In this document: positions 17,619-40,018 of the stretch, in pieces
How positions within the stretch are numbered: position 1 is the stretch's first letter
Layout of the letters: each line of letters starts with the position of its first letter
Assembly (NCBI GenBank): GCA_041694255.1
Contig: JASMTN010000021.1
Coordinates: 231-64,230, forward strand
DNA: 64,000 nt
Direction of reading: 5' to 3'
DNA from: Candidatus Altimarinota bacterium
GTDB lineage: Bacteria > Patescibacteriota > Gracilibacteria > Absconditabacterales > Absconditicoccaceae
Made by a program: the position numbers and the translations under genes
Notes under the pieces: model-generated
Told to the model about the DNA's origin: nothing
Database searches by the model: none
Seen by the model: only the letters and a program-made list of their open reading frames with translations

Positions 17619-17692
17619 TGCTTTAAATTTACTTATTTAGTAACTTTTTTCAAATAAAAAATTTTTTATAATTTTTTAAAAATAAATAAATG
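17619..17692 (-). repeat. imperfect (about 85-90% by eye) copy of the cassette-junction sequence
   Basis: Aligns with 13514-13583. Shares TTACTTATTTA-TAACTTTTTTCAAA and AAAAATTTTTTATAATTTTTTAAAAA. Overlaps the stop codon of the methylase at 17666. Confidence 0.7.
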
Positions 17693-18406
17693 TTCATGCA
17701 TAATAAGTAAAAAATTATAATCTTTTGATTTATTTACCCAAAATCAAGTAGCTTGACAATTATGTTGTTTTTTAATAATATCCTCTTTCAGTACAAATCA
17801 AACTTTTAAAAACCTTTCCATTACTTTAAAAGCAAGTGGTTGATACAATTTTTTTCTTCTTGTATCTCAAATAAGTATAGCACAATAAGATCACTTTTTT
17901 AAAACTCTAAAAGATTCTTTAGCAACTTTTTCTATTTCATTACAAAACTGATCTATATCATGTATATTTGATAAATCTTCTTTTATTTCTCAATCAGAAT
18001 ATTTAATTATATCAGAATAAGGAGGATGAGTTAGCACAAAGTCTATACTTTCATCTTTTATTGAAGTTTTTTTTCTTCTTGCATCTCAAAGTTTTATATC
18101 AATATTAGGTTTATTTTCTGATTTAAAATCAAGTAAACTTTTTGTTAGCTTAACTGAGTTAGGATTTATATCATATCATATTAAATTTCTGTTTAAAAGT
18201 TTAGCTTCAATAGCTGTTGTTCAACCTCAAATCATAGGTTCTAATATAGTATCTCATTCTTGAGAATATCTTAAAATTAGGTTTCTAACAACCTCAGGTG
18301 ACCAGTTTCATCTATATTTACTATTGTGAGTTGCTCGATTTCATCTTCTTGGAAAAGACCACACAGTTGTACATTCAAGTTCAAAATTTTCTGGTTGTTT
18401 TTTCAT
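17666..18406 (-). CDS. DNA methyltransferase, N4/N6 family (DpnA-like second methylase)
   Basis: 246-aa ORF. Contains WSFPRRGNRATHNSKYRGNWSPEVVRNLILRYSQEGDTILEPMIGGGTTAIEA and THPPYSDI. Starts directly after the REase stop. Confidence 0.75.
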
Positions 18407-19285
18407 TTACTCAATTATTTCATCTAAAATACCTTCTTTTAACATTTTCAAGTTATATATATTTCAATTTGTTGCATAATAAGCTTCTTCTAAAGGTTTC
18501 AATGCAGTTTTCCATCATAATCAATCAGTTATCCAAAACATTTGAACTCATTGTTCTTGAAGAAATTTATATAAATAATTAAACTCTCAAGATACAGACT
18601 TTAATTTACTTCATCATCAACCATAATAATTAACTTCTATTAAAGATAATGTTTTAGTTTCTTTATTAAAAATTCAAAAATCAAATCTCCTTGATGATTT
18701 ATCTGATTTAACTTCTATTCACCAATTTTCTTTTATCCATTTAGCTGTTGCTTGTTCTTTATACTCACAATTATTTTTATCACAAAAATCTTTTATAAAG
18801 TCCTCTACTAAATTTTCCATCAAAGTTCAGCTTCTATTTTTCCTTGCATTGCTATCAAGTCAAGTTTCTATACCAAATACATAATCTTCTAAATTTTTTA
18901 TATGTTTATTTTCAAAAATTTTTTGCAATCATGAATTTTTGAAAAACTTTATAAGTTCTTTTTCTCAAGCTATATCAAGTTTAACTTTTTTATCAAACAA
19001 ATATTTAACTTCTAATATTTCTTTAGTTTCTTCATCTAATATTAAATTAAATTTTTCTCTTACAGCTAAAAGTATTGGTAAAACTTCCCTAACTTCTGGG
19101 TATTTTATAACAATTTCTAAAAACCTGTCTTCAATGTTTTGTTCTCAAATAAGAGAATTTAATATATTTAATTGAACTTTTATTTTAAAAGTATTTTGTT
19201 CTATTTTTGGGAAATTACAAAAATAACTCCATGTAAAAATGGTTTTTCTAAAAGTTGAAATTAGGTTTTGGAAGTTTTTTTGCAT
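18407..19285 (-). CDS. type II restriction endonuclease, DpnII/MboI-like family (putative GATC-specific)
   Basis: 292-aa ORF with FGIETGLDSNARKNRSGTLMENLVED and EVNYYGGGGSKLKS. I recognise these as DpnII-family blocks from memory only. Confidence 0.6.
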
Positions 19286-19317
19286 AGTAACTTTAAATTA
19301 ATAATAAAAATTTACTT

Positions 19318-20316
19318 TTATAATTTTTTCTTTGCTTTTGATTTAAAGTCTTCTCAAGTATAATTACATCTTAAATAATCTCTATTTAATATATCTAAAA
19401 TTTTTTCAAAATTTGACTTATTTAAATTAATTTTTTTATTTTTATCAAGTTCTAATAATCATCCAAAATATTTATTGTATTCTGCTTCTGAATAAGATTT
19501 TTTTAAGTTATCTAACATTTTTTCATCAAATTTTTTAATCATACTATCATTATTTGAATCTTTATTTTCTGAAATTAATTTTACCTTTTTAGCAATTGAA
19601 TAATTATTTGCTATCATTTCACTTATAATATCTTCATTATCAATATTAAAGATATTATTTTCATCTGAAATAAAATTATCAGTAAAAAATTTTGTAGCTT
19701 CATCCTTAATATATTCTCTATAATCAAAAATTGACTTATATTTATTGCGATTTAAACAAAATACATATTTTCATCATAAGTAAATTACATCAATAGTTTT
19801 TTTTAAATTTAAATATTCTTTATTATCAATACTTGAAAAAATATTTCAACTTTTATTAAAAAAAAGTGGTATATATTTACTAAGTTTAGTTTTATTTACA
19901 TACATTTGTGGTTTATAAAACGATTGTAATAAATAAATATTTTTTTCATTTTTTTTATAATGAATTATCCAACTTCTTACAGTAAAATTATCTAAATCAT
20001 CAATTTTTTCTATTTCCTTTATTTTATCTTTTTTTATTTTACTATCTATCTCTGGAAATTTTATTACATTAGCTTTTTCTTCATAAAAGTTTTTTTGTGT
20101 ATCATCATCTAAATTATACTCATCAAAATCTTTTACAAAAGTTTCTTCATCAACAACAATATTATTTTTATTTAAACATAAATATGGCTTTAAAAAAGTA
20201 TCCTTAATACTTTTTTCCAATTCATTATCCACTTTTATTTTCTTTAATTGAAAATCTTCGTCTTTAGATTTATTTTTACATAAAATATATAGTCATTCAA
20301 AATTAGTATCTTTCAT
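19318..20316 (-). CDS. hypothetical 332-aa soluble protein (KwaB/DUF4868-like by size and context)
   Basis: Code-25 ORF. Frame agrees with track ORF 19846-20232. I recognise no catalytic motif. Paired with the upstream 4-TM gene. Confidence 0.4.
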
Positions 20317-20322
20317 TGTAAA

Positions 20323-20892
20323 TTAAGAGTTATATAAGTAAATTTCATCTGATATTTTTAAACACCTATCTCTAATAATATTATCATAGTTTATGTTATC
20401 ATATTGTTTTTTTATTATATATATTATATAATTATTTGATTCCATAGCAATTATATCATATCAAAATATTAATAAAAATATATTATATTTAAATAAATCA
20501 CTTTTAATATAAATTATAAAAACTGTTCATAACAAAATAATTGTTATCAAAAGTCTTTTATTATCGTCAATTCATAAAAAAGGAATTAAATATGTAAACA
20601 AGTATGTTAAAACTTCATGATTATTATTTTTAACTAAAAATTCATTATCTTTAATTTTATTAAAAAAAACTTCATTTATTTTATTTCAATATTTTGGTAA
20701 CATTATTTTAAATAAGATAATAACAAAAATAATAGAAAATATTAATAAGAAAATTAATAAATATGTTAAAATATTATGATAAAAGTTTGGTATAAAAGAA
20801 GAAAAATTTTTTAAATCTATTATTATAAAAATAATAAATAAGGGAAAATAACTAGTTATAAATAAAGATATTTTAGATAATAAACTTAACAT
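20323..20892 (-). CDS. 4-TM membrane protein (KwaA-like by size and topology)
   Basis: Track ORF 20686-20892 extends through TGA to 189 aa, with about four hydrophobic helices. Confidence 0.4.
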
Positions 20893-20901
20893 AAAAAAAT
20901 A

Positions 20902-21861
20902 TTAATAACTTAAAACAACAATTTCATCAATTTTTCATCTTCAAGAAGAATTTGAATTTATATTTCTTCTTGCTTTGACAGTTTTAAACTTATATCAAGC
21001 ATAAAGTTCTCTTATATAAGGTGTATCATGATTTGATAACATTACTTTTACTCATTTTTTATCAAGTTTTTTAAAAACTTCTGAAAGTTCTTTTTGCTCT
21101 TTTTTTCAAAATCCTCACTCATTATAGCTTGTAAAATTTGCAGTATCAGTTAATACATCATAAGGAGGATCAAAATATACAAAATCACCTTTTTTAGCTT
21201 TTTCTAAAACTGTATCATAAGATTTAAATTGTATATCTGCTTTTGTTTTATTTAAAAGTTTTGAAGTATTTTGTATATTTTCTTTTTGCACAAAATCAGG
21301 ATTTGTATATTTACCAAAAGGAACATTGAATTGTCAGCTTTTATTTACTCTATAAAGTCAATTAAAACAAGTTCTATTTAGATATAAAAACCTTCAAGCT
21401 CTTTGTATGTTTGAATACTTTTCTTTCCAATTATCTTTCCTATCCCAAGCTCTTATATCTAAAAAAGTTTCTTTATCATAATTTAAGGTTTCAAGAAAGT
21501 TTATAAGTTCTTTTGGATGATTTTTTATAACCTGGTAAGTATTTATAAGTTCTTCATTTACATCATATAAAGAAGATTTTTTTCTTTGTAAATTAAAAAA
21601 CACAGCTCATCATCAAACAAATGGCTCAAAATAATTATTAAACTCTTTTGGAAACAAACTTTCAAGTTGTGAAATTAGTTGTCTTTTTCATCAAACCCAT
21701 TTTACAAAAGGTTTAGCTTTTATGATATCGTTATTTTCTTCAAAAAATTGTTGTCATGATTTTAAATCACTAAATGCTCATGATAATAACCAAGATTGTA
21801 TGATAAGATAATTTATTCAATATTCTTTTGCCAATTTGTTTATTACTTCTTTATCTCACAT
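20902..21861 (-). CDS. Dam-family N6-adenine DNA methyltransferase (DpnM-like)
   Basis: 319-aa ORF. Contains VKWVGGKRQL, EPFVGGGAVFF, NEELINTYQVIK and FDPPYD. Frame agrees with track ORF 21394-21603. Confidence 0.85.
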
Positions 21862-21893
21862 TTTTATAGTTTAGTTATAATATAATTAATTTT

Positions 21894-21921
21894 ACTATAT
21901 TTATTTAACAACTTTTTTCAA
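21894..21921 (-). promoter_or_regulatory. promoter-like element of the dam/DpnII operon
   Basis: The minus strand reads TTGAAA-N16-TATAGT. The -10 lies about 33 nt upstream of the dam ATG. Confidence 0.45.
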
Positions 21922-21923
21922 AT

Positions 21924-22094
21924 AAAAAAAACCGGTTGTATTCAACCAGCCCTATATATTGTGCATAACTTAGAGGGCCTAACCGGTTTATAGTCGTTAG
22001 GACCCCTAAAATAGTAGGTTGCCTACTGTTGTCAGTATATTAGCAACAACAGTTTTTTTTGTTTATGTTTAAGCAACCCTAGAATTCTAGGATC
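21924..22094 (-). ncRNA. candidate structured small RNA of unknown class (about 170 nt)
   Basis: GC-enriched relative to its flanks. Own promoter-like element at 22101-22128. Hairpins: CCTAGAATTCTAGG, CTGTTGT/ACAACAG, GTAGG/CCTAC and GGGCCTAAC/GTTAGG(A)CCC. Terminal hairpin CUGGUUG-AAUA-CAACCGG followed by U8. Confidence 0.45.
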
Positions 22095-22100
22095 CTAAAA

Positions 22101-22128
22101 ACTATAAAAAAAATTAACACAATTTCAA
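22101..22128 (-). promoter_or_regulatory. promoter-like element for the ncRNA candidate
   Basis: The minus strand reads TTGAAA-N16-TATAGT, the same architecture as other promoters in this window. Confidence 0.4.
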
Positions 22129-22205
22129 CAAGTTTTTTAAAAAGTTTAAACTATTTTATAATAAAATTCATTAAATAGTAGTTCTTAATTCTACTTATAT
22201 AGATT

Positions 22206-22730
22206 TTATCAAACTATTGGTTCAAATATATAATTAGCTTTTAATAATTTAGTTTCTTTATTCCAATTAATTTTTTGATAATCTTTAAGTATATTTTCAT
22301 ATTTTATAACATCTAAGTTAAGTTGATTCCTTTCTTCAAAAGTTTGCTCACATATTCAAGTTTTTATCTCTTTTCTAGATGTTATATCATAGTTTTTATC
22401 TTTTTTAAGAAGTATGAACTTATTTTTATTTCAAGAAAAAAGATATATATTTTCATATCAAAGTTTATTAAATAACTCCAATTTATCCATATAATATACT
22501 TTATCTAAGTTTCAAAGATGCAATAAAATATTTACTACTTCAGTTCCTATCCTAGTTGTAGAAAAATTTCAAGGTCAAGTAATTATATACAAAGTTTCTA
22601 TACTATTTTGTTTATATAGGTAGGTTGGAAGCTGAGTTTCAAAATTTTTTCTATCAAAAAAATATAAATCTCAATCATTATATACAAAAGGTACATCACT
22701 GGCAAAATTTAATAGCATATAAGAAAACAT
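22206..22730 (-). CDS. tsaB: TsaB/YeaZ-like protein (t6A biosynthesis partner), short form
   Basis: 174-aa ORF with TGPGNFSTTRIG, matching the TsaB GPGSFTGxRIG motif. Confidence 0.55.
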
Positions 22731-22780
22731 TAAAACATAAATTAAAAAACATTATAATAATTTTTTAAAAAATTCAATAT

Positions 22781-22803
22781 CAAAAAAAGCCCGATATATC
22801 GGG
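22781..22803 (-). terminator. intrinsic terminator after rpsI
   Basis: Palindrome CCCGATATATCGGG followed on the minus strand by a T-run. Confidence 0.7.
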
Positions 22804-22827
22804 AATTTATTTTTTATATATAGAAAA

Positions 22828-23250
22828 TTATCTTTTACTCCATTGTGGAGATTTTCTAGCACCTCTAAGACCTGGTTTCTTTCTTTCTTTTTCTCTAGGA
22901 TCTCTTTTTAATAACCCATAAGGTTTAAGAGTAGGTCTATAGTCAGGATTAAATTCAACCAAAGCTCTTGATAAAGCTAATCTTATAGACTCAGCATGAC
23001 CTCTTAATCCACCCCCATGAACATGTAAAGTAACATCAAACATTTTTCTAGTAGGTGTTCACAATACAGTTAAAGGGAAAAGTGCATCTTTTAAAAGATC
23101 TTTAGAACCTTCTCATGCAAAGTAATCTTCTATTTTTATATACTCTTGATCTTTTTTAACAAGCACATTTCATTTACCTTTTGTAAGATGACATGTAGCA
23201 GTAGAAGTTTTTCTTCTACCTACAGCATAGTAATATTTGTTTGTAGCCAT
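22828..23250 (-). CDS. rpsI: 30S ribosomal protein S9
   Basis: MATNKYYYAVGRRKTSTA... HGGGLRGHAESIRLALSRAL ... KSPQWSKR. Track ORF 22828-23043 extended through TGA. Confidence 0.95.
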
Positions 23251-23254
23251 TTAA

Positions 23255-23713
23255 TTATATTCTTTCAGGAGATAAATGATCATATTTATTTGTAGTACCT
23301 ACAAATAGTTTCAATCTTTTTAATCTTTCTTTTCTTAATTTATTTTTAGGTAACATTCACTTAACAGCTAATTGTATAACTCTTTCAGGATGTGTATCTA
23401 ACATTCTTTGTAAAGGAATTTCTTTAAGATGACCTTTATGTCAAGAGTGTGTACGATATAGTTTATCTGATAATTTATTTCAAGTTACTTTAACTTTATC
23501 AGCATTTTCAACTATAACATAATCACCACAATCCCAGAAATCACATACATATGGTTTATCTTTTCAAGATAGTCTATTTGCTATCTCTACTGCTATCTTA
23601 CCAAGTGTTTTACCTTCAGCATCTACAATAAACCATTTCCTATTATTTTTTAAATAATCAGGCTTTATCCAAACAGTTTTATTTAGATTTTGCTTAGTAA
23701 TATTTTCTAACAT
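23255..23713 (-). CDS. rplM: 50S ribosomal protein L13
   Basis: [29 protein letters not shown]... matches the L13 pattern. Lies upstream of rpsI. Confidence 0.9.
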
Positions 23714-23751
23714 CACAAGTTTTTAAAATATAAACTTTTTTATAACAACTG

Positions 23752-24141
23752 TTAAACTAACTCTAACATAATTTTTTCAACAGCATCACCTTTTCTATAA
23801 CCAACTTTATAATTTTTTACAAATCAAGAAACTTTTCAGCTTTCTAGATATGTTGACAGCTTATCATTCATAATTTCAGTTACAACATTTTTATCATAAA
23901 TAATACTATCAAGTATTCTTTTTACTTCTCTTTTTGAAACATCTTCTTCTTTATATTTTTTAGAAGTTCTAACTAATCTTGCAAAAAGTTTATCAGCTTC
24001 ATGCTTAACTACTTTAGCCTTTTTAGGAGTTGTAGTTATTCTTTTTTCTCTAAGTAAAGAAGTTAGCATATTTCTTAAAACATTATCTTTCTTTTGTATT
24101 CCTGAATTAAATTCAAGAAGTCTATTATATCTATGTCTCAT
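23752..24141 (-). CDS. rplQ: 50S ribosomal protein L17
   Basis: MRHRYNRLLEFNSG...LLREKRITTTPKKAKV. Follows rpoA. Confidence 0.9.
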
Positions 24142-24164
24142 AATTTTACTTAAACAAACTAAAA

Positions 24165-25184
24165 TTACTTTTTAGCTCACAATTGTTTTCACTCTTTTTC
24201 AAGAGATTCTTGTATCTCATCAACTGCTTTTTTACCAACTCACTTTAATGATATAAGTTCTGTTCTTGTTTTCATTTCAAGATCCTCAACAAACTCTATC
24301 TCATTTTTAATAAGTGCATTTCTTGTTCTTTCACTTAATGTAGGTAATGAATCTATAGGAGTTTTTCTAACATCTTTAAATTCATTATTATCAAGCTTAT
24401 TATCATCCTCTATATCATCAATTTCTGTAAACAAATCTTTATCTATATAAGATTCATCAAAAACAAACATTTTTGTATAAGAAGATATAGCTTCTCATGC
24501 AAAAGCAAGAACTTCTTTTGCATCAACCTTGTCAGATATAGTTTCTAGATTTATAACAACATAGTCATTATATTCTCAGTCAAAGTCTGATATAACTTCA
24601 TCAACATCATATGAAACATTTTTAACAACTTTGAAATCATTATCAATAAGCATATTTCATAATTGAACACCTTCTTCAGATTCAGACAATTCTTTTTCTC
24701 TTTTTTGTAGGTCATTTATAGACAAGTATTTGTATCATTTTTCTAATCTATAACTAACTTCTAATTCAAGTTTTGGATCTGTTATCTCAAAAAGATAAGA
24801 TCAACTAGTTAAAACTTCTATACCTGCAGGCAAATCTAAATCTTCTACATAATACTTACCAACTCACTTAAATTTTTTACTAACCCATTCAATTTTATCT
24901 TGAACATTTCATTTAAATTTAAGATCTTTGAAGTTAAGCATAACTTGTAACATTGTTTCTTTTACACCATCAACAGTAGAATACTCATGACTCACTCACT
25001 TTATGTTTAAAGCAGTAACAGCAATTCATGGATTATAAGATATTAGTGTTCTTCTTATCATATTTCAAATACTGTGCCCTAATCAAGCAGGTAAGGGTCA
25101 GAACTTAAAACTAGATACATTTGTATCTTCATTTTTTAACCATTGAATTTCAGGTTTTCAAAGAAATTTTTGGATATCCAACAT
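24165..25184 (-). CDS. rpoA: DNA-directed RNA polymerase alpha subunit
   Basis: 339-aa code-25 ORF. N-terminal domain plus C-terminal LSERTRNALIKNEIEFVEDL (alpha-CTD HhH). Frame agrees with track ORF 24240-24470. Confidence 0.9.
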
Positions 25185-25208
25185 TAAAATATACATATAG
25201 ATATAAAA

Positions 25209-25823
25209 CTATGCTCTAGCATAAAACTCAATTACTTTTAGCACATCAGCAGGAAGCTCTATTTCATCTGCTCTTGGCAAATCAAGAACTTCTATTTTTT
25301 TATCTGCAATATTAGCTTTTATATAAGAAGGAGATTTTACATTTTTATTTTCTCAAGCATAAAGATTAGAAGCTTTTAACTTATCTTTAAGTTCTATCAA
25401 ATCACCCTTTTTTACTAAGTAAGAAGGTATGTTATGCTTTACACCATTTAATAGAAAATGTCAATGTGTTATCATTTGTCTTGCTTGTACTATAGTATTA
25501 GCAACACCAGATCTATATAAAACAGAATCCAATCTTCTTTCTAAAATAATTTTAACAGATTTATCATAATCAATACCTGAATTCTTAGAATATTTAGCAG
25601 CTATTTGTGTAACAAATCTTTTAAATTGTTTTTCACTCATGTGATAAACTCTTTTTAAAACTTGTTTATTTCTCAACAATTTACCATATTCAGATAGCCT
25701 AGCCATACCACCACCGTGTTGACCAGGAAGTTTTCTTCTTTTTCTTACATCATACTTTGCAGGTCAGAATAAATTAATTCACTCTCTTCTACAAAGTTTA
25801 AATTTTGGCCCTGTATATCTCAT
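25209..25823 (-). CDS. rpsD: 30S ribosomal protein S4
   Basis: [15 protein letters not shown]... [11 protein letters not shown] ... [10 protein letters not shown]. Confidence 0.95.
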
Positions 25824-25848
25824 ATTATTATATTAAACCAAGATAAAA

Positions 25849-26244
25849 CTAATTTCTCCTTTGTCTTTTTCATTTACATCAACCAAATTGAATAGGAGTA
25901 GCTTCTTTAATAAAAGTAATATCTACACTACCCAAGTCGTTAACTGCTTTAAAAACACCATCTCTTGAAAGTCAAGTACCTTTAAAAACAATACCCATTT
26001 GTGCTAAGCCATAATTTTTAGCCTCATCCAAAAGCTCTTTAGTAAGCATCTCAGCAGCAAAAGGTGTAGATTTTTTACTTCATTTATATCAAACTGTACC
26101 TGTACCACCTCATAATACTTTATTACCTTTTTCGTCTGTTAATGTAACAATAGTATTATTAGAAGAAGTATTTACATATAACAAACCACTAGACAATTTA
26201 ATATTCTTCTTCTTTTTAGTTGTTGTAGTTTTTTTTATTGCCAT
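25849..26244 (-). CDS. rpsK: 30S ribosomal protein S11
   Basis: ...GLLYVNTSSNNTIVTLTDEKGNKVLGGGTG...STPFAAEM... Confidence 0.95.
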
Positions 26245-26272
26245 AAATATTTAATTTAAAGTCCTAAAATTA

Positions 26273-26647
26273 TTACTTTTTAGCTACTGGTCTAACTCTT
26301 GATCTACCCATTAGCTTTTTAGCTGTTTTAGCATTTGTCTTTGTTTGTTGACCTCTAACAGGCATTCAAAGATTATGTTTCATACCCCTAGCTGTTTTTA
26401 ATTCCTTCATAGCTTTAATATTTCAAAAAACTTCTCTTCTTAAATCATTTTCTAAGTTGTATGTTCTAACCTCATCACTAATTATTTTTTCTTCTTTTTC
26501 ATCCAAGTCTTTAACTTTTTTATCGAAGTCTATTCATATCTTATCACATATATCTTTTGCCCTTGATTGTCATATACCATATATGCTTGTAAGAGCTATA
26601 CCCAAAGATTTTTTTTCTGGTAACATATGACCCAATAATCTAAACAT
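26273..26647 (-). CDS. rpsM: 30S ribosomal protein S13
   Basis: ...LTSIYGIGQSRAKDICDKIG ... GMPVRGQQTKTNAKT. Confidence 0.95.
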
Positions 26648-26738
26648 AATTTAAATTAATTAATAATTATAAATTTTTAACTTAAAGCACAAAAAACGAT
26701 TAAACCAATTTAGTTTTAAAACATTTTTAAGCTATAAA

Positions 26739-26855
26739 TTATCCTTGCCTTTGCTTATGATTAGCATTAGAAGAACAAATCACCCTAACAACTCACTTTC
26801 TTCTAACTACTTTACAATCCTTACAAATTGGCTTAACTGATGATCTAACCTTCAT
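26739..26855 (-). CDS. rpmJ: 50S ribosomal protein L36
   Basis: [38 protein letters not shown]. Confidence 0.95.
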
Positions 26856-26879
26856 TATAAACTTTTAATAACAATTAAA

Positions 26880-27095
26880 TTACAACCTATAAGTTATATA
26901 TCATTTTGTAGGATCAACTTCATTTAATTCTACTTGAACCTTATCACCCATAAGTATTTTAATTCTACTTTTTACTAACCTTCATTTAGGTTTAGCTTGA
27001 ATTTTCATTCAACCATCTAAAACAACTGAATACATTCATCATCAAAGTATCTTATCAACTATTCACTCTAATACGATTCATTCGCTTTTAGCCAT
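26880..27095 (-). CDS. infA: translation initiation factor IF-1
   Basis: MAKSEGIVLEGIVDKILGGGMYSVVLDGGMKIQAKPKGRL... Confidence 0.9.
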
Positions 27096-27104
27096 AAATT
27101 GCCA

Positions 27105-27428: not shown

Positions 27429-27455
27429 AATCAACCTCTTATTAAAATCTAAATA

Positions 27456-27716: not shown

Positions 27717-27807
27717 AAGCAATTTTATATTATATTAAATAAAACACATTAAACCAATTAAATATATGTTCCAGCCAACAACACATATTTAAGCAATTTA
27801 AGTAGAA

Positions 27808-29656: not shown

Positions 29657-29730
29657 AGCGGATGACGGGACTTGAACCCGTGCAAGCAGAGCTGAATTCT
29701 GCTATGCTACACCAATTACATCACACCCGC
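29657..29730 (-). tRNA. tRNA-Gly (anticodon UCA), UGA-decoding tRNA of genetic code 25
   Basis: GCGGGUG acceptor (G1-C72, C2-G71, G3-C70) and U73 discriminator, as in tRNA-Gly. Anticodon stem GCAGA/UCUGC with loop AUUCAGC, giving anticodon UCA. Confidence 0.85.
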
Positions 29731-29736
29731 AAAGAT

Positions 29737-29901: not shown

Positions 29902-31167
29902 CTAAAAATCCCAACTTCATTTCATAGATGAACTTTGAGTATAGTTTGTAACTGTACTTTCAAAAAAGTTTCATTTTTCACTATTATGATCTTGCAACCT
30001 TGTAAGGTGCTTATAAGGATTTTCTGTATATTCTGGATATAATGGATCTAATCATATCATTTCAAGTCTTTGGTTTGCCAACCATTTTGTATATTTATCT
30101 ATACTATCTTTATTTATTCATATAATTCATTCTCATATAATATGATTTGACCAAGATATTTCTTGATTAACTGCAGTATCAAACATTTCATATATAAGGT
30201 TTTTATCGAAAACTTCTGGAGACTCTTCCTTTAGATCTTTAATTAAATGTGCAAATAATGTTACATGAGTAAGCTCATCTCTTCTTATATAATTTATCAT
30301 TCTTTGACTTGCAACCATTTTTCACATATCTGCTAAGGTATCAAAATAAGCAAATCCATTATAAAAATATAAGCTTTCAAGTAGAAAATTACCCACAACT
30401 GCCCTGAAAAAATTTTTATCTGTTTTATTATCAACAAAGTCTTGATATATATTTCATATAAAAGTTATTCTATCTAATAGATGCTTATCTTCATTCCAAA
30501 AGTAATATATTCCATCTCTTTTATCTGCAGGAACAACACTTTCAAGTATCGTTGCATAGCTTTGAGAATGTATGGCTTCCTGATAGTCTTGTATAGCAAG
30601 AACTAAGTTTATTTCTGGAGCTGTTATAAAGTCATTTATATTTGGGAGATTTAGTGTTTGTATACTATCTAAAAAAATTAGGAATGACAATATTCAATTA
30701 TAAGCCCTTTTTTCTTCAGTTGTTAAAGAATTCTTATATTGAGTTCAATCTTCTCATAATCACTTAACTTTTTCAGGAACCCAAAAATTTCAGACCATAA
30801 CTTGATATAAATTTTTAGCCCGAGTATATTTTGTGTTATTAAGTTGAAAAATTTTTGTTGTTGATCATTTTATAACTTTTCTTTGAGATACATCATCATT
30901 ACCTTCTGGATTAAAAAGCAATACTTGTCACATAACTTGTTCTCAATCTTTAATAATATCTATAGTTCAATGTTCTTTATATATCAAATCAATTTGTCAT
31001 GTTATATTCTCAACCAATTCATCTATTGTTTTTGATTGATATGAAATTTTAATTTCTGACCCGTTAACACTAAGTGTTTCAAAAACCTCTCCATAATAAT
31101 AATCATCAACCCTATCTATTTTGATAGTTATATGCAAATTATTTAAGGGATTTATATGCAACTCCAT
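29902..31167 (-). CDS. nrdB: ribonucleotide reductase beta subunit (R2) with an N-terminal extension of about 80 aa
   Basis: 421-aa code-25 ORF. The R2 core starts near ...LLFNPEGN...NFWVPEKV, with EAIHSQSY and RDELTHVTLF iron-ligand motifs. Frames agree with track ORFs 30133-30318 and 30454-30690. Confidence 0.85.
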
Positions 31168-31311
31168 AATTAATTAATTTATAGATAAATAAAAATTACA
31201 ATTTGTATAATATTTTTTTTAAAATTAAAATCAATAATATTGTTTTTATAGTGTTGACTTTTACATATTAATTATTATACAATTATTATTTTATAAAAGT
31301 AAATTAAATAA

Positions 31312-33612
31312 ATGAACAACTGCCAACCTAAAGTAAATATAAGTTATCATTGAGGAATAGAAGATAAAAAAGAAGGAATTAGTTTAACATGATCATCAAC
31401 ATTAATGAAAATAAAAGATGAACTTTGATGATATATAAATATAATATTTGATTATTGAATGCATCAATGATGATATAAATCAAATAATCTAAATGAAAAT
31501 ATTGATAATGAAATACTAAAAGCAGACTTTCTTATAATAACACATGCACATATGGATCATGTATGAAGAATACCTATGTTAATAAAAAATGGATTTAAAT
31601 GAAAAATAATAATGACAAATCTTACAAAACAAATAACACAAGCAATGTTAAGTGATTATGTAAGATTAACAGAAAAGCAAATAAGTGAAGTAAAAGAGCA
31701 AAATAAAAAAATATGAGAAACATTTAGTAGGCACATACAAGCAGTAAAAATATATGATGAATTAATAAAATGATGAATTAAAAAAAATGAAAGAGAAAAA
31801 AAAGAAAGAAAATTAGAACAGCTAATATGAGAAAAAGTAAGATATTGAGAAATTAAGAGAAAAAACATTAAAGAAAAAATAAATGAAATAAAGAAATTAT
31901 TAAAAAAATATCATATCAAAAATGAAAGTGATATAAGGCTAATACAAAAAGAAGAACCTGTGTTGTTATATGATTTAGATGATGTATATAAAACAATATC
32001 TAGAGTGGAAACAATTGAAGTATGAAATGAAATAAATTTAGATAATAGAATCTTCATAAATAATAAAGATGATAATAGGATAATATCATTACCTAAAATA
32101 ATTAGAGAATGATACAACAAAAAAATATTTGTATTGCCACATATCAAAGCACATATAGTAAATAAATTAAAAAATTATTTAAACGAAATTGCAAAACATA
32201 ACACAGAAAATAAAAATATTAGAGAAAAATTAAAAAAAATATTAAAAAAGAATAAAAAAACTGATAATGAAAAAAAATTATTAAAAAAATATTGAATAGA
32301 AAAGGTAGATGATATAGAAAACTTAAAAAAAGAAATAATAAAGTTCCCATATACTTATGATGAAATTAAAACAGTTTCAAAAAATTTAGAATTAGTTATT
32401 GATAAAAATAAAAATAAATTTTTAGAAAGTATAAAGCTAAATTTTCATAATGCATGACACATAGAATGAAGCATTCAAGCTACAGTAAGTATAGTTACTG
32501 ACAAAATAATAGATCTTTTATGACAATCACCTCAAAGAAGGTCTTTTGAATGAAAAAAAAGAATTGAAAGAGAATTTAAAAATTTTTGATTTTCTTGAGA
32601 TTTATGAAAAATAACAGAACCAAACATATCATGAAGTCCGGAGATACCATCATATAGATATGACTTTTTTCAATGTGAATCCACATATGCAGATAGAGAA
32701 CATCCTTGCAAAAAAGAAGAGTTCAAAATGTTTATTAATGAAATATATAAAACAAAATGAAAAGTTTTAATACCAGCATTTTCTTTACAAAGAACTCAAG
32801 AAATAATGCTAGAGCTATTACAAAACAAAATATCAAAGCAAGATCTTATAAAAAAATACTGACAATTAAAGCAAGAACTAAGAAAACTTAATATGGAACT
32901 TGCAAAATTAATATGAAATCAATATATAGAAAAAGATTATGAACATAAAGTAAAAAACATTAAAGAAAAAATTGAAATAATTAGTAATGAGATTGATAAA
33001 GTTTGAGAGCAAGTATTTTTATATGAAATAATTGTTGATTCTCCATTATCAAAAGAAATTAGTGATATATTTTTACATAATTTATGAGAAAAATACAAAC
33101 TACTTGATAAAAAAGTACAAGAGGATAAAATATGAAAAAACACAATAACATATCTTGAAGATAATGAATATAAAAAACATTACACAGATAAAAGAATAAA
33201 TAAAAAAGATATAATACTTTCATCTTGATGAATGCTACAGTGATGAGCAATAACAAATCATATAAAATTATTAATTTGAGACCCTAATTCAAAAATTATA
33301 TTTACTGGATATCAAGCAGAATGAACATTATGAAGAGAGTTGATAGATTGAAAAAAACAAATAATAATAGATTGAGAAGTATATGATGTAAATTGTCAAA
33401 TAGTACAAATAAGGTGATATAGCTCACATATATGAAAAAATGACCTTATAAATTATATATGACAATATTTAAATTTTTCAAAAAAATCAATAGTAGCATT
33501 AAATCATGGTTGAGAATCAAGAAACCATCTTGCATATGAGATAAATAAATTAAATCCCTTGCAAAAAATAGAAATTCCAAAACTTTGAGATACAATAGAA
33601 ATTAAACTCTAA
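31312..33612 (+). CDS. metallo-beta-lactamase / beta-CASP family nuclease (RNase J/CPSF-like) with large K/E-rich insertions
   Basis: 766-aa code-25 ORF. Contains ITHAHMDHVGRIP (HxHxDH), HNAGHIEGS, CESTYADREH, GYSSHIGKNDL and ALNHGG. Confidence 0.65.
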
Positions 33613-34090
33613 CATATTCTAAAAATTCAAAGCTTATTCAGTTTTCTTCCTTTTTTCAACTACGAGAAGATAATTTAAAATCTTCTTGTATTTTTTTTAT
33701 AAAATTTTGTTCAAAAAACACATCACAATTAAAATTTGAATAAACTTGAGTTATGTATATTTTATCAGCATACTCTATACCCTCTTTATATATTCTTTTT
33801 CCTCACATTAAAAAAATATCACCTGATGTATCTTCTATAGCTTGTTTTAAACTAGAAAAAACTTTATAATTATCTGCTAGATCCAATGAAGAGGATATTA
33901 TTATATTTTCCCTTCATGGTAAAGGTCTAACTTTTTCTGGTAGTGAATTCCAAGTATTTTTTCACATAATAACAGTTTTTCATTTTGTTTTTTGTGAGAA
34001 AAATTTCAAATCTTCTTTAATAGTCCAACAAAGGTCATTATTTTTTCATATACCATAGTTTTCATCCATTGCAAATATAAGGTTTATCAT
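33602..34090 (-). CDS. folA: dihydrofolate reductase
   Basis: 162-aa ORF. Contains MINLIFAMDENYGIGKNNDLCW, TVIMGKNTWNSLP, PLPGRENIIIS and IFLMGGKRIY. Its 3' end overlaps the convergent gene by 11 nt. Confidence 0.85.
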
Positions 34091-34117
34091 TTCTCTACTT
34101 GAAAAAAGTTAAAAATT
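34090..34117. repeat. 28-bp perfect direct repeat, left copy (island 2 boundary)
   Basis: TTTCTCTACTTGAAAAAAGTTAAAAATT, identical to 40316-40343. Starts at the first base of the folA start codon complement. Contains the last codons and stop of res. Confidence 0.9.
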
Positions 34118-36730
34118 TAATAATTTATCATCAAAAGCTTCTTCAAAATCTATTTCTAAATCTTTATTGTATAATGGTAATCAAATAAGTTTATAATTTC
34201 AAAAGTTAGAATCAATAATCTCTGCCTTTTCATCTATTCAAGATAAGAATTTTTCTTTCCATCATTCTTTTGAATTTCAAAATAATCATTCAGCATCTTT
34301 AAATTGACTTCACTTAGGTTCTATAAATATTTGATAAGTTAAAGGTTTTTTAGTTTCTTTTTCTTTCATAAATAAAACAAAATCTGGTTCAAATCTATCT
34401 CAATCATCAAAAGAATATATTGCAAAGTGTCTTTCATTTCTTATTAAATATATATCATCATATTTATTATTTAAATCTTGTAACTTCTTTTCAAATAGTT
34501 CTATAAGATGTTTTTCTTCACTTGTTGCTGTTATTTTATCAAATACAAACCAATCTTTATCTTTTGTATAGTCTTCATAAGAATTTACTTTTATAGTTTT
34601 ATCTTTAAATATTTCTGATATTGCTTTTGCATCAAATGCAGTAGTTCATTCATATTTTGTTTCTTGTTGTTTAATCTCACTTTCCATAGATTTTAATAGT
34701 GCTGATACTGCTTTTAATAAATCATCACTGTTTAAGTTGTCTAAAACTTCTTTTGAACTATATAAATCAATTCTTTTAGATGAAAGATATTTATAGTCTG
34801 TAATAAATTCATCTATACTTTTAAGTTGTCATATATAATTTTTGAGATTATCAAATTTATAAAAATCATTTTGTTGTATAGCTTTTCTAATTATTTTTTT
34901 ATCTATATCTTTCATTTGAAAGCTTTTAGGTTCTTTCTCTTGTTTTTTTCAAACATCTTTTTCATTATTTTCAAAAACTTGTATATCTCAACTTTTACCA
35001 GTATGTAGTGTAAATTCAAATCTTTCTATTTTCATTCATACTTCTTCTAAGCTTTTAACTTCTTTATTATCTTTTTCTTGTCTTTTATTAGTATAGATAT
35101 ATCAGTTTTTATAAAAATTTGTTTGTTTAAAACTTTCTTTAAGTTTAAGAGTAAATTCCTTTTTTTCTTCTTCATCCATCATTCAAGTATCTTTTAAGGC
35201 TTGTTTAATTTCTGTAATATATAATCAGTCTTTATCATAAAAAGTATGATAGTAAAAAGTTTCTAATATTTTCAATTCTTCATCTTCTTTTTTATCAAAT
35301 TTTCTTTTATATTTACTTTCTCATAATGCTTTTTCGGTAGTAAATGGAAAATATCTTGCTCATCTTCATATAAGCTGTGCTTCAGACATTGTTTGAGGTC
35401 AAACTTTTACTTTTCAAGTTTTTTTATCAACAACATTACTTCTTGATTCATAAAGTCTTACTATATCAAAAAGATTTAAAACATCCCATCATTCATTTAA
35501 CTTTTGAACTGCAAATATAGCTCTTATTCTATTATCTTTTTCTTCTAAAGTATTTAATAAAATTTGATTTTTATTTGCTTGTTTATCATCATTTGCACTT
35601 ATACAATTTTCTTCAGCAAAATCTTGTTTTAATTCATTTGTAATATCTTCCAAAGATAAATCATTGTTACTAAAAAAGTTGAATGCTTTTATAAGTATAT
35701 CTTCATTTGTTATGTTTTTTATTCTTTCAAGGTCTTCAGCTTTTAAGTTTTTTATTAGTTTATTAAATTTATCAAGATTTTCTTCACTTTCAGCTATTGT
35801 TTTTTGTGCCTTAAAAAGAATAACAGGTTTACAATATATGTTATTTTTTTCTGCAACTTTCAATCTATACTGACTTAAAATAAGGGCTTGTAATATCCTA
35901 TCTTTTTGTTCCATATCAGCTTTTAAAATATCTACTTCTTTGCTATATCCATCAAGTCTAAATTGTTTTAGATCATACTTATATATTATCTTATCAATAT
36001 ATTTTTCTGCTATATTTTCATTTTGTAAATCTACTGTTGCTGTAAATTCTAAAAGTAAATTGTCCTTATGAGATTGTAATATATTTTTAACAGTATATTC
36101 CCAAGAAGATTTTTCCAATTCTTCGGTTTTATTTAATTTTCATTTTTTTGTAGTGCTGTTTATATGATGAGCTTCATCAGAAATTATTGCTACCTTATTT
36201 TCTTTAAAATCTTCATAAGAAAGTCAGTTTTCTTTTGGAAAATTTAAATCCATATGTAATCATTGTATAGTAGTGAATTTTATATTTATATCATCTTTTT
36301 TAGATTCTGCAAAATTATCAACTTCTTTTATATTTATTTGTTCACTATCAAAAGTTATTTTTTGATTAAAAAGGTATTTTGAAGAGTTTGAATTTAAAAA
36401 ATTTTCTTTAGTTTTTTCTATAATATTTGTAGAATTTACAAAAAACAGAAAGTTTTTATATCATTTTTCATAAAGTTCTAAAATTAAACTTGCCATTATG
36501 AAAGTTTTACCACTTCAAGTTGCCATATTGAAAAGCAAATGAATAGGTTGTATTTTATTTGGATATTGATTAAAATAATAAGAAAATCTTGCATAAGCTT
36601 CTTTTTGATATTCTCTTATTTCAAAATTTTGATTTAAGTTTTTTGAAATATATAAAGGGATAGTTTTATCTAAAACTCACATTTCTGATAATGTATCAAG
36701 TTTTTGATATAAGAATTGTTGGTTTTGCAT
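34109..36730 (-). CDS. res: type III restriction enzyme Res subunit (SF2 helicase + PD-(D/E)xK nuclease)
   Basis: 873-aa code-25 ORF. Contains MATGSGKT (Walker A), ISDEAHH (DEAH), FTATV, QKLNEGWDVLNLF, and C-terminal FEPDFVLF...FIEPKG. Frame agrees with track ORF 35489-36118. Confidence 0.85.
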
Positions 36731-36743
36731 TTTGTTAGTTTAA

Positions 36744-37238
36744 TTATAATGTAAATATAAGTATAACAAACAATATTATACTAATTCATAATATTAAAGA
36801 AGACTTTTTTATATTTTTCATTTTATAATTAGCAATTGTTGAGTTTATATATATCTGTTCTAATATTTGTTTTTCTTTTTCTGTGTTTGATAATTTTTTA
36901 TATCATTTAATAAAATCTCATATCTCCATACTTGATATACTTCAAAAATAGAAAAAGTTTTTGCAAGATAAATTATTGGTATTAATATTTGGATAAACTG
37001 AAATTAATAAAAAAGTTATTCAAACTATAATAGACAATATAAAAATAAGTAGTATTCATAAAGTAATATAATCACAATTATTTAAATTTAAGAAAACAAA
37101 ATCAGACCTATTCCAAATAAGAAAAGTTATTAATAAAGCATAATATGTTGATAACAAAGTAAACTTTTGTTCTGCAAATTTTATCCATTCATTAACTTTA
37201 CTTAATTCATTCTGAAGTATTTGTATTTTATCTGACAT
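36744..37238 (-). CDS. 2-3 TM effector-like protein (Pycsar PycTM/DUF5706-like)
   Basis: Track ORF 37056-37238 extends through TGA to 164 aa. N-terminal helix with NEWIKFAEQKFTLL (FA-D/E-x-K-like) followed by TM helices, plus a C-terminal TM. Immediately downstream of the cyclase gene. Confidence 0.5.
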
Positions 37239-37265
37239 TTATAATTATATTTATATATAAATTTT

Positions 37266-38075
37266 TTAATTATCTAATTGTATTATATTATTACACCAGT
37301 CTTTTCAGTGTTTTTCACACCAATTACTTTTCAATACATATGCTTTATTAAAATCAAATCTATTATCTTTTAATAAATTTCTTGTATTCCATAACTCTTC
37401 TTTATATCAATGATTTTCACTGTTAGTACATCAACAAGATTTAGTAACTAACTCTGAAGTATTAATATTTTCATAGTACCTATCAGAAACATATAATTCT
37501 CATTTATCTGAAAGTGAAGCTAATTTTGCAGACATATTTATTGGTTTTCAAGCCCATACTTCATTTTTTCTATCATCTCTATCAGAATTATTTTTTAATC
37601 ATAAAGATTTTACCAATACTGTTTTTTGGTCTATTCACATATGGTATCAGATTTCTACTTTTCAATTAAGTTTTTTGGTTACTTTTGGTATAAAAGTATT
37701 ATCAGCAAAAGTTTTAAAAGTTATAGCAGATGCGAAAGCAGTAAAGGGTTTATTTTTAGAAAAAAGAGCGAAAACTCAATCTCACTTAATATCAATGTAT
37801 TCTGCTCACATATTATGAAAAGTTTTTATTGCAGTGCCAGTGAAAAATTCATAAATGTTTGCTGTTGTATTTTGATGAGAAGTAGCACTCAACCCTGTAG
37901 AGTTTTTTATATCAACAAAAACTGAAATCACATCTTTAACTTTATACCAATGATTCATTGGATATTTTCAATTTGATGGAAGATTGTTAATATTTTGTAT
38001 AGATACACTATTATTAAACTTTTCAACTGAGGAAGCTATAATTTTATCTATATTATCCAAATATTGATTGCTCAT
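37266..38075 (-). CDS. class III nucleotidyl cyclase-like protein (Pycsar PycC-like)
   Basis: 269-aa code-25 ORF, checked codon by codon. VISVFVDIKNSTGL (metal-binding Asp motif) and IDIKGDGVFALF (GDG motif). Cys/His-rich C-terminal tail CGC...H...C..H...C. Confidence 0.6.
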
Positions 38076-38080
38076 AATTT

Positions 38081-40018
38081 TTACCCCTTATAAAATAAAT
38101 CATTCAATTTTTTATCTTCATCGTCTATATTATAAGTTTCATCTTCCATTTCACTATAATTTACATATAATAAGTTTTTATCAAGTAATTCTATCAAGAA
38201 TTTTTTCATATTTTCTATAGAAAGATTTTCAAATTCTTGTATATTTTCATCAATAGTTTTTATATCTACATCATAGTTTATAAATCAAGTTTGTTTGATT
38301 TGTGAGTAAATATCAAGTAATGCTTGTTTGTCTTGTGATTTATTTATCTTGTTTATAAAAATTTGATTTGATTCCATAGTTTCCATATATACAAAATCTC
38401 ATCATCATTCCCAATTTACAGATTTACTAATTCATCATTGTTCTCATTCTATTACTTTTTTCATTCTCTCACAAGTTATATCTTGTATATAATCCATTTG
38501 TTCAATTCCTATATATTGTCTTCACATTTTATGAGCTACGGCAGTAGTTGTTCAGCTTCATAGATGATAATCCAAAACTATATCTCAAGGATTTGTTGAA
38601 AGTTCTATTATTCTTTGAATTAGTTTTTCTGGTTTAGGAAAAGAAAAAACTTTATTTCAAAACATAATATTTAATTCTTTATTTGCCTCAGAATTATTAG
38701 TAAAGTCTATAATATTTGAATATGGAGTTTTAGATTCATATCATTCATATCTTTTTGTATATACAGACCATCAATTTTTGGTTTTAATAAATTCTATATT
38801 TCAATTATTTAATTCTTCATAAAATCTTTTTTCAGAAAGTCTCCATTGCCAATCTCTATTTTTTGATAATCATTCTTTTCTTTGTTTAAATTTTTTTTCA
38901 TCATTTCAAGGATAAATATTTTGTCAATTAGGAGATGAAATTATAAAATCATTATTTGGTCTATATTCTAAACCTCATCTATCTAATTTTTCAATATTAT
39001 ATTTTCATTTTTCATCTTGTCTTTTAAAATCTATATTAAGAATTCTTTTATTTAATTCAGTAAGATTATCAGTTTTTCTAAATAAAAGAATATTTTCAGT
39101 TTGCACTGCAATAAATTTTGAATCATTTTTTCAAGAAGATTTTTTATATACTATGCTTGAAACAAAATTTTCTCTTCCAAAAACTTCATCCATCAAAACT
39201 TTTAAATAAGCTTGTTCATTATCATCACATTGTACAAAAATAACTCAATCATCTTTCAATAAATCTTTTGCAACTTCCAACCTATTTTTCATAAAAGTAA
39301 GCCAAGTTGAATGATTGAACCTATCATTATAACCAAAACTATCATTACCAGTATTATAAGGTGGATCTATATAAATAAGTTTTACTTTGTTTGCAAATTG
39401 TTTCTTTAATGAATGCAGTATAAGTAAATTATTTCATTTTATTATCAAATTATCTGTAATAGTATCTTCACTCAATCATCTTTTTTTATTCAATTCTTTA
39501 TCTTTATTGAATCAATCAAGTTTATGTTCTCAATTTTTATCTATTCTTTTATAGTTTGTAAATACTTTATCATCCAAAAGTCTATCAATTTCATCTTGTC
39601 ATAAAATTTCATTATAAAAAGTTTCTTGTCTTTTGCTATCTTCTTTATCTTGTCATCCAGCTAATACACAATCTTTGAAAGGAAAAGAAAGCACAACTTC
39701 ATTTGAAGATGATATATAATCTCAAGATTTATTTGTAAGTCATATTTTATTTTTGAAACTTGTATAACTATCAGGTAAAAATTCTTTATTGTTTACAAAT
39801 TGTACAAATTTTTTGCTATCAAAAACTATTACATCTTTTATAGGTTTAAAAAATACTTTTCTTGTATCATTATTTTCCAAAAGTAAAGAAATAAGATTTT
39901 CATCAAGTTTTTCTGCCTTTTCTCTGATAGTATTTTTAAGTAAATATCAATCTTGAGATACAAACCTTTCATCTTGTTTTAAAACCTCTATAAGTGTATT
40001 TTGTAGTTTGTTTTGCAT
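38081..40018 (-). CDS. mod: type III R-M Mod subunit (N6-adenine methyltransferase)
   Basis: 645-aa ORF. Contains LIYIDPPYNTGNDSFGYNDRFNHSTWLTFM, DDGVIFVQCDDNE and VLDYHLGSGTTTAVAHKMGRQYIGIE. Confidence 0.85.

Follow-up and report, generated by a model that had tools for sequence, protein, structure and literature searches.

Putative Kiwa and Pycsar systems carried inside two restriction-modification operons of a UGA-recoded CPR bacterium

The question raised by this locus is why two restriction-modification (R-M) operons of one chromosome each enclose a further pair of genes between their methyltransferase and endonuclease genes, and what these pairs encode. The window, which is the whole analysed stretch of 64,000 nucleotides from contig JASMTN010000021.1 of a Candidatus Altimarinota bacterium, probably contains two composite defence operons: a Kiwa system embedded in a DpnII/MboI-type R-M cassette (cassette 1) and a Pycsar system embedded in a type III R-M operon of the HI_1054 type (cassette 2), each forming a single unit with independent layers of defence. 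All proteins of the window were translated with code 25 (TGA=Gly).

Cassette 1 has the order dpnM, kwaA, kwaB, R.DpnII and second methyltransferase, and all of its open reading frames (ORFs) lie on the minus strand:

20902..21861, minus strand, dpnM-like D12-class N6-adenine DNA methyltransferase (M1; PF02086 1e-69; PADLOC MTase_II 3e-103)
20323..20892, minus strand, kwaA, predicted membrane subunit of Kiwa, 189 amino acids (12 PADLOC KwaA models, best 1.3e-16, full length)
19318..20316, minus strand, kwaB, putative divergent DNA-binding subunit of Kiwa (DUF4868), 332 amino acids, soluble (transitive homology, hhalign, Foldseek)
18407..19285, minus strand, type II restriction endonuclease of the DpnII family (PF04556 7e-90, full length)
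17666..18406, minus strand, second methyltransferase, N4/N6 class (M2; PF01555 8e-27; PADLOC MTase_II 6e-89)

The dpnM product contains the motifs DPPY and FxGxG, and the start of M2 directly abuts the stop of the endonuclease gene. Cassette 1 thereby comprises the DpnII endonuclease and the Dam-like D12 methyltransferase that define a DpnII-type R-M system, together with the optional second methyltransferase; its specificity for GATC is predicted. M1 is separated from R by the 1.6 kb of Kiwa. Hydropathy analysis of KwaA revealed three to four hydrophobic helices (about four transmembrane (TM) segments), and homologues with 42–45% identity are encoded directly upstream of KwaB-like genes in two related loci, L083 and L084, the KwaA of L083 being recognised by Pfam.

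For KwaB, no direct match was obtained in Pfam or PADLOC scans, even at E = 10, nor in PDB sequence and profile searches or in a word-indexed protein search. An exhaustive phmmer search yielded nine full-length relatives (311–358 amino acids), four of which (P0004, P0008, P0009 and P0010) exceed the Pfam gathering score for KwaB, and hhalign aligned the profile of the window KwaB subfamily to these four with a probability of 100% (E 2.4e-42). In the structure searches and the searches of representatives, database versions translated with TGA=Trp (P0001, P0131) served as queries. With an alignment-built AlphaFold2 (AF2) model (pLDDT, the predicted local distance difference test, 66), the top six Foldseek matches in the PDB were KwaB crystal and cryo-EM structures (9nyu, 9mtn, 9mrx; E 1.6e-7 to 5.6e-6), and the next match had an E of 1.5. 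A single-sequence AF2 model was not used (pLDDT 42). Because of the relatives above the gathering score, the hhalign and Foldseek results and the pairing with KwaA in two relatives, the 332-amino-acid partner of KwaA is identified as a highly divergent KwaB. As in Kiwa systems, kwaA is followed by kwaB (6-nt gap), and this pair is conserved in L083 and L084.

Cassette 2 has the order mod, pycC, pycTM and res, again entirely on the minus strand:

40059..40241, minus strand, orf60, small acidic ORF between the island edge and mod (ORF call)
38081..40018, minus strand, mod, type III methyltransferase and specificity subunit (PF12564, TypeIII_RM_meth, 2e-22; PF01555, N6_N4_Mtase, 3e-52)
37266..38075, minus strand, pycC, predicted Pycsar pyrimidine cyclase with class III cyclase fold, 269 amino acids (PADLOC PycC 1.3e-107, residues 2-268)
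36744..37238, minus strand, pycTM, predicted Pycsar TM effector with 2 strong TM helices, 164 amino acids (PADLOC PycTM 1.7e-29)
34109..36730, minus strand, res, type III helicase-nuclease subunit of the HI_1054 type (PF04851, ResIII, 1e-31)

PycC carries the motifs FVDIKNST and GDG, and invariant Asp, Arg, Asn and Glu columns are common to it and 23 aligned homologues. PycTM reached 47.9 bits with Pfam PF18967 (cut-off 27.2), and its gene lies 27 nt downstream of pycC on the same strand. With a cyclase that retains its catalytic residues and an adjoining TM effector, the insert is predicted from its sequence to be a complete Pycsar system. The carrier possesses the domains of both type III subunits, with a DPPY motif in Mod and intact motifs GSGKT, DEAH and PD..ExK in Res. 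Its mod and res genes are not adjacent, since 1350 nt (pycC and pycTM) lie between them; they are nevertheless co-oriented and without a terminator in between. Phase variation of mod was considered and rejected, as the gene has no simple-sequence tract. No family match was found for orf60, with which the type III operon may begin.

An earlier note on this DNA had proposed two R-M operons with abortive-infection-type gene pairs inside them. According to the Pfam and PADLOC matches and the intact catalytic motifs, both operons are real and intact at the coordinates listed above, and ORFs and hydropathy confirmed that each insert consists of two co-oriented, tightly packed genes for a soluble and a membrane protein. 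That the inserts are related to defence was borne out by PADLOC with code-25 translations and by the KwaB evidence; at the same time, the identification of Kiwa and Pycsar means that the pairs are known systems and not new ones. The abortive-infection label fits Pycsar, which Tal et al. are said to have described in Cell in 2021 as an abortive-infection system of PycC and PycTM. According to current work it does not fit Kiwa, in which KwaB stalls phage replication (PMC11785009).

The genes are closely spaced, with gaps of 9, 6, 32 and 0 nt in cassette 1 and of 5, 27 and 13 nt in cassette 2. In agreement with the earlier note, no terminator-like hairpin was found on the minus strand inside either cassette, and clear ones occur just outside. 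The following signals flank cassette 1:

21953..21928, minus strand, intrinsic terminator of the gene upstream of dpnM (hairpin scan)
21921..21894, minus strand, promoter-like module TTGAAA-16-TATAGT, 33 nt upstream of dpnM, one of four boundary-repeat copies
17609..17687, minus strand, boundary repeat with promoter-like module directly after cassette 1 (repeat search)

This boundary-type promoter module is absent within cassettes 1 and 2, an absence that fits each cassette being a single transcription unit. A promoter consensus scan was uninformative, as sigma-70-like hexamers were as frequent in this DNA of 25% GC as in shuffled sequences. The membrane and cargo genes (19318-20892, 36744-37238 and 17145-17585) have GC contents of 13–18%, compared to 22–26% in the flanking R-M genes. 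TGA accounts for 86–100% of the glycine codons in the cargo genes; on this ground a recent import of the cargo from standard-code bacteria was rejected, and the cargo genes belong to the recoded gene pool.

On the carrier side, the window was compared with relatives of its Res protein (57–74% identity), all located on TGA-recoded contigs, which gave eight loci with the following cargo between mod and res:

Window: Pycsar
L085: RhuM / PDC-S05 (Pfam 3.6e-83, PADLOC 5e-109), 14 nt upstream of res
L086: 261-amino-acid protein without family
L087: PDC-M59A (7.8e-104) and PDC-M59B, a Fic/DOC protein (6.9e-24)
L088-90: 609-amino-acid OLD/AriA/GajA-like ABC ATPase (7e-46)
L091-93: AbiD / Abi_2 (5e-34)
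L094-96: PDC-S42-like and Shedu SduA-like pair
L098-100: empty slot, mod and res 11 nt apart

The mod-res junction is occupied in 7/8 recoded loci, each time by a different cargo, and six of the seven cargos match a known or candidate defence family. The cargo is co-oriented in every occupied slot. The gaps between mod and cargo, within the cargo and between cargo and res are mostly 0–25 nt; L086 has one overlap of 1 nt, and in L092 two gaps measure 82 and 64 nt. In L085, where the contig stops before mod, the stretch homologous to window DNA sets in precisely at the stop of pycTM, 15 nt before the ATG of res. Conserved repeats at the junctions between mod, cargo and res were not found.

Among Res relatives on annotated plasmids (35–43% identity), mod and res are contiguous or overlapping in 6/7 cases, the exception being a 145-amino-acid ORF between them in Chryseobacterium; slot occupancy thus differs between 7/8 recoded and 1/7 plasmid loci (Fisher p = 0.010). 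DpnII-family cassettes on plasmids have contiguous or overlapping genes in 4/4 cases, so that the assumption of normally contiguous R-M genes holds for both carriers. The differing cargos imply repeated swaps at the mod-res junction, which is an exchangeable cargo slot in this type III lineage. The proposed recurrence of R-M operons as carriers was therefore found for the type III operon (7/8 loci with cargo) and not for the DpnII cassette. A metagenome scan with Res returned a single locus, exact look-ups of P0001 and of the Vampirococcus Res (P0132) matched no contig, and a viral-contig scan with R.DpnII gave no locus.

Two further genes were observed beside the type III operons. A gene for 370–375 amino acids, shared by L086 (12587-13699) and L092 (5902-7029), starts 3–4 nt after res, and an 86-amino-acid HTH_26-like gene (helix-turn-helix, HTH) is located immediately upstream of mod in L086 (7024-7284) and L092. 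They may represent an accessory gene and a regulator of type III operons.

On the passenger side, 80 species-representative loci with relatives of PycC (28–65% identity, many phyla) were compared, and Pycsar was located between Mod and Res in none of them (0/80). In the locus with the nearest relative (65% identity, L054, a metagenome-assembled genome (MAG) of Gracilibacteria) Pycsar stands alone. Directly downstream of R-M methyltransferase genes it was detected in Nostoc (L019, order res-mod-pycTM-pycC), in an Omnitrophota MAG (L018) and in a gammaproteobacterial MAG (L048); in these three loci it is beside the R-M genes and not inside. Likewise, the short flanks of the four nearest Kiwa loci contain neither DpnM nor R.DpnII (0/4).

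The Pycsar relatives showed two other features. In L054 (1265-2081), PycC is split into ORFs of 168 and 108 amino acids, either by a frameshift (pseudogene) or by an assembly error. Furthermore, a second, divergent cyclase-like gene adjoins PycC in L044 (10810-11526), L048 (1075-1791), L018, L020 and L052; one example encodes 238 amino acids with FYIDMRKS...NGDG, and the gene lies between PycC and PycTM in L044 and L048. This may be a three-gene variant of Pycsar.

How cassette 2 arrived at its present position is indicated by the strongest direct repeats of the window, which are found at cassette boundaries:

34090..34127, plus strand, left copy of the direct repeat; adjoins the start codon of folA and includes the stop codon of res
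40316..40353, plus strand, right copy of the direct repeat; thyA promoter region, with the -35 element TTGAAA at 40325 and the thyA ATG at 40382
33602..34090, minus strand, folA (dihydrofolate reductase, DHFR), co-directional with res and 18 nt downstream of it, without a terminator between

The two copies (28 nt perfect, 38 nt at 89%, 6226 bp apart) bracket exactly orf60-mod-pycC-pycTM-res. Because a 28-nt perfect direct repeat is present at both ends, the type III and Pycsar island appears to have entered the folA-thyA intergenic region as one piece. In this arrangement, folA is now probably transcribed with or through the island. It was further observed that folA has lost its original upstream region, so that an essential gene may rely on read-through from a defence operon, and that the copy at 34099 duplicates the thyA -35 region, a duplicate that now faces the 3' end of res in antisense orientation.

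The proposed function of the composites is as follows. Each would be transcribed as one unit from a promoter upstream of the first R-M gene. As the first layer, R-M would cut unmethylated incoming DNA, and Kiwa or Pycsar would act if infection proceeds, each independently by its published mechanism. In the case of Kiwa, KwaA would sense membrane disturbance at the infection site and KwaB would bind phage DNA and stall its replication. In the case of Pycsar, infection would induce PycC to form cyclic cytidine or uridine monophosphate (cCMP or cUMP), upon which PycTM would disrupt the membrane and the infection would be aborted. The type III island would have entered the folA-thyA region whole, and recombination within the conserved flanks, mod and res, could exchange its cargo. 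The arrangement would persist since the cargo gains a promoter, travels with the R-M genes and, enclosed by M and R, could hardly be deleted without harm to the cell.

Several points weigh against this interpretation. Co-transcription of each composite is deduced from the gene layout, and internal promoters are possible, because sigma-70-like hexamers are everywhere in DNA of 25% GC. That embedding brings linkage and resistance to deletion is a matter of reasoning, and the activity of the cassette proteins is predicted. The eight type III loci share ancestry, so 7/8 does not represent eight independent events. The DpnII carrier showed no recurrence, given the contiguous plasmid cassettes and the four nearest Kiwa loci without DpnII genes in their short flanks, and Kiwa in a DpnII cassette is a single case so far; another reading of cassette 1 is that dpnM is a Dam-like gene in its own right, next to Kiwa and an R-M2 pair.

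A first alternative is that R-M junctions are a neutral genomic sink, which tolerates insertions or is a recombination hotspot, and that the cargo has its own promoters and gains no advantage from nesting. This option was raised by Payne, Hughes, Fineran & Jackson 2024 (bioRxiv 10.1101/2024.01.29.577857), and it would agree with the same Pycsar clade lying beside R-M genes in L018, L019 and L048, with the many promoter-like sites of AT-rich DNA and with the GC content of the cargo (13–18% vs 22–25% in the R-M genes), which suggests a separate origin. However, the co-oriented and tightly packed geometry at all eight loci is not expected of random insertion, the slots are filled far more often than on plasmids (7/8 vs 1/7), and neither a boundary-type promoter module nor a terminator occurs inside the cassettes. 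A purely neutral insertion hotspot is disfavoured by this operon-preserving geometry, and we regard this explanation as doubtful.

A second alternative, which seems unlikely, is a guard-type coupling as in PrrC/EcoprrI: the R-M system would hold the cargo inactive or be monitored by it, and the cargo would fire when an anti-restriction protein of a phage disables R-M. The precedent is PrrC itself, which occurs almost only in type I R-M systems and is controlled by EcoprrI. One relative carries an OLD/AriA-like ABC ATPase, a class that anti-restriction proteins are known to trigger, and tight operon packing would supply the matched stoichiometry for such a partnership. On the other hand, seven unrelated cargos in the same slot are hard to reconcile with a specific protein-protein partnership. 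An almost exclusive embedding in the cognate R-M system, as known for PrrC, was found neither for Pycsar (0/80; stand-alone in L054) nor for Kiwa (0/4). Pycsar reportedly also works alone when heterologously expressed (Tal et al. are said to have shown this in 2021), which counts against a guard function. The same holds for Kiwa, which works alone in heterologous expression (PMC11785009). The functional coupling suggested in the earlier note thus found no backing in a specific form, as the cargo differs in every relative and neither passenger recurs in its carrier among the loci compared. Because of the cargo diversity at the mod-res slot, co-expression and linked inheritance are more likely than a Pycsar-specific coupling.

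The last alternative, that the R-M genes of epibiotic CPR (candidate phyla radiation) bacteria mainly digest imported host DNA for nucleotides and that the composites are no two-layer defence, draws on a proposal of Moreira et al. for the restriction enzymes of Vampirococcus (PMC8080830) and on the island lying between the nucleotide metabolism genes thyA and folA, with folA now following res, but is very improbable, as 6/7 cargos match known or candidate defence families, the cognate methyltransferases are kept as a hallmark of self/non-self discrimination, and the folA-thyA position is explained by the direct-repeat signature of the insertion.

Beyond the preferred reading of two composite operons with independently acting layers, a more far-reaching proposal can be put forward only tentatively: the mod-res junction of HI_1054-type type III operons in Absconditabacteria/Gracilibacteria might be a dedicated, exchangeable defence slot, in which the promoter of the R-M genes drives the cargo and the addictive M/R pair guards it against loss, and in which some cargos might act as guards that fire upon inhibition of the type III enzyme.

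The window itself is chromosomal DNA of a CPR bacterium near Ca. Vampirococcus (Absconditabacteria). Its type III Res shares 86% identity with a protein from Ca. Vampirococcus lugosii, and further close relatives are labelled Gracilibacteria; V. lugosii has been described as an epibiotic CPR bacterium that reads UGA as Gly and possesses several R-M systems (Moreira et al., PMC8080830). At 25% GC, the window is almost without long ORFs under table 11 and densely coding with TGA as a sense codon. TGA occurs at invariant glycine positions of ThyA (DRTGxG, GDLGPVYG) and DHFR (GIG, MGxxT), and one tRNA gene fits this code:

29657-29730, minus strand, tRNA with anticodon UCA, 74 nt (ARAGORN label 'tRNA-SeC (tca)')

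Because of its normal length of 74 nt and the evidence for TGA=Gly, this gene is suggested to be a tRNA-Gly(UCA) that decodes UGA in code 25. From the invariant glycine positions and the UCA tRNA it follows that TGA encodes glycine, and the genetic code of the window is code 25 (UGA=Gly). A public protein collection stores proteins of this contig (P0001, P0011 and P0131) as translated with code 4 (TGA=Trp), and P0001 has W at all its 6 TGA positions there. This mistranslation puts tryptophan on conserved glycine sites and will make homology searches less sensitive throughout the lineage.

Beside the defence genes, the window consists of core chromosome with the S10, spc and alpha ribosomal operons, tuf, a recG-like gene, thyA and folA. 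Three R-M systems as well as Kiwa and Pycsar lie within 27 kb of it. The third R-M cassette was observed at 13813-17066 (minus strand), next to cassette 1:

17145-17585, minus strand, ORF for 146 amino acids with 4 TM segments, 13% GC and its own copy of the boundary promoter, between the two R-M cassettes
16284-17066, minus strand, N4/N6 methyltransferase of the third cassette
15875-16279, minus strand, 134-amino-acid single-TM protein of the third cassette, without family match
15597-15830, minus strand, C-protein HTH of the third cassette
14930-15583, minus strand, IceA/NlaIII-like restriction endonuclease of the third cassette
13813-14880, minus strand, D12 methyltransferase of the third cassette
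13592-13813, minus strand, 73-amino-acid ORF overlapping the D12 methyltransferase stop by one base, without family match

The 134-amino-acid single-TM protein is possibly a third embedded gene. Neither Pfam nor PADLOC gave a match for the 146-amino-acid ORF. A palindrome with a 12-bp stem, ATAGTCATCATT...AATGATGGCTGT, at 15820-15849 overlaps the start of the C-protein gene and resembles a C-box operator more than a terminator.

In this region, a promoter-like module (TTGAAAAAAGTT and about 20 nt more; TTGAAAAAAGTTaytaaataagtaa...) occurs four times on the minus strand:

13504-13582, 17080-17132, 17609-17687 and 21877-21929, minus strand, copies of the boundary module (repeat search)

The copies precede dpnM, the 146-amino-acid TM ORF, the third R-M cassette and the recG-like gene, and mark every cassette boundary from the recG-like gene to dpnM. 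Additionally, a 64-nt repeat (13519-13582 vs 17624-17687, 92% identical) brackets the 146-amino-acid TM ORF and the third cassette, and its copies include a remnant of the 3' end of the methyltransferase gene 17666-18406. This pattern suggests that the cassettes may have accreted stepwise by recombination at the boundary module. The 12-mer TTGAAAAAAGTT was considered as a universal attachment site and rejected, as it does not flank the type III modules in the relatives; it is a feature of this genome and not a general attachment site.

The embedding of defence genes in other defence systems is a recent and productive idea, which has already been used to discover new systems. With the present loci, the rule also covers a further class of carrier and a little-studied region of the tree, in which annotation with table 11 or table 4 hides these genes. 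Cargo genes without assigned function are thereby nominated as defence candidates, and the natural set of operons with the same carrier and different cargo could be used to discriminate between co-regulation, linkage and functional coupling. The results also indicate that episymbionts with small genomes invest heavily in layered defence. If the mod-res junction were a dedicated slot, the type III operons of recoded CPR bacteria would serve as a discovery tool where standard pipelines fail, and the 261- and 320-amino-acid cargos would be the first candidates.

The earlier note knew of no description of such a nested arrangement as a unit. Nesting has been described, as Payne et al. 2024 named nested defence 'embedding' and derived 'guilt-by-embedding' from it, with type I R-M, BREX, DISARM and Hma as carriers; 96.7% of the embedded genes were co-oriented with the carrier, and co-regulation, back-up defence and linked transfer were discussed (bioRxiv 10.1101/2024.01.29.577857). 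Both inserts correspond to their definition (up to three genes within a multi-gene defence system, usually co-oriented), as each consists of two co-oriented genes, and diverse cargo is likewise common to both studies; PDC-S05/RhuM and PDC-M59, which were detected as cargos in the relatives, are candidate families defined by these authors. Unlike in their study, the carriers here are a type III R-M operon (with the slot between mod and res) and a type II DpnII-like cassette, and the hosts are UGA-recoded CPR bacteria, which table-11 pipelines would miss. In function, the proposed dedicated type III slot would correspond to the sites at which type I R-M and Hma carry embedded genes. In the papers searched, R-M systems of type III or type II were not found as carriers, nor Pycsar or Kiwa among the cargos. 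What appears to be new is the variable type III cargo slot in recoded CPR bacteria, while the concept of nesting itself has been published for other carriers.

PrrC in the type Ic hsd locus of EcoprrI is the classical coupled example and resembles the present loci in that an R-M operon encloses a co-oriented gene for second-line defence. It differs in that PrrC is physically regulated and nearly always embedded, whereas Pycsar and Kiwa normally stand alone and the cargo of the slot is interchangeable. A two-gene system embedded between R-M subunit genes is also known from the island of RptR, type I R-M and DarTG2 in enteropathogenic Escherichia coli (EPEC): DarTG2 lies between hsdS and hsdR, and one promoter was shown to drive the island. 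The insertion site was described there as a hotspot of recombination, at which other genomes carry different cargo (PMC12255303). In that case, the carrier is of type I (hsdS-hsdR) and a dedicated repressor gene comes first; here, orf60 may come first in the window, and some relatives have an HTH gene upstream of mod.

With regard to the passengers, the cassette 2 insert resembles known Pycsar systems in its cyclase and TM effector, the full-length profile matches and the conserved catalytic residues; it differs in that its genes are encoded with TGA=Gly and placed between mod and res. The cassette 1 insert shares with Kiwa the 4-TM KwaA followed by a KwaB of about 320 amino acids with DUF4868 fold, in the same gene order and with the pairing kept in relatives. 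According to Zhang, Todeschini et al. (PMC11785009), membrane disturbance is sensed in Kiwa by KwaA, and replication is then stalled by KwaB, which binds the phage DNA. The KwaB of the window is too divergent for direct Pfam or PADLOC matches, and the pair is embedded in a DpnII-type cassette. This cassette agrees with GATC cassettes of the DpnII/MboI type in its Dam-like D12 methyltransferase, DpnII-family endonuclease and second N4/N6 methyltransferase. The MboI genes have the order M1-R-M2, as in cassette 1. The plasmid DpnII examples are arranged as M1-M2-R or M1-R with contiguous or overlapping genes, whereas here the 1.6 kb of Kiwa lie between M1 and R.

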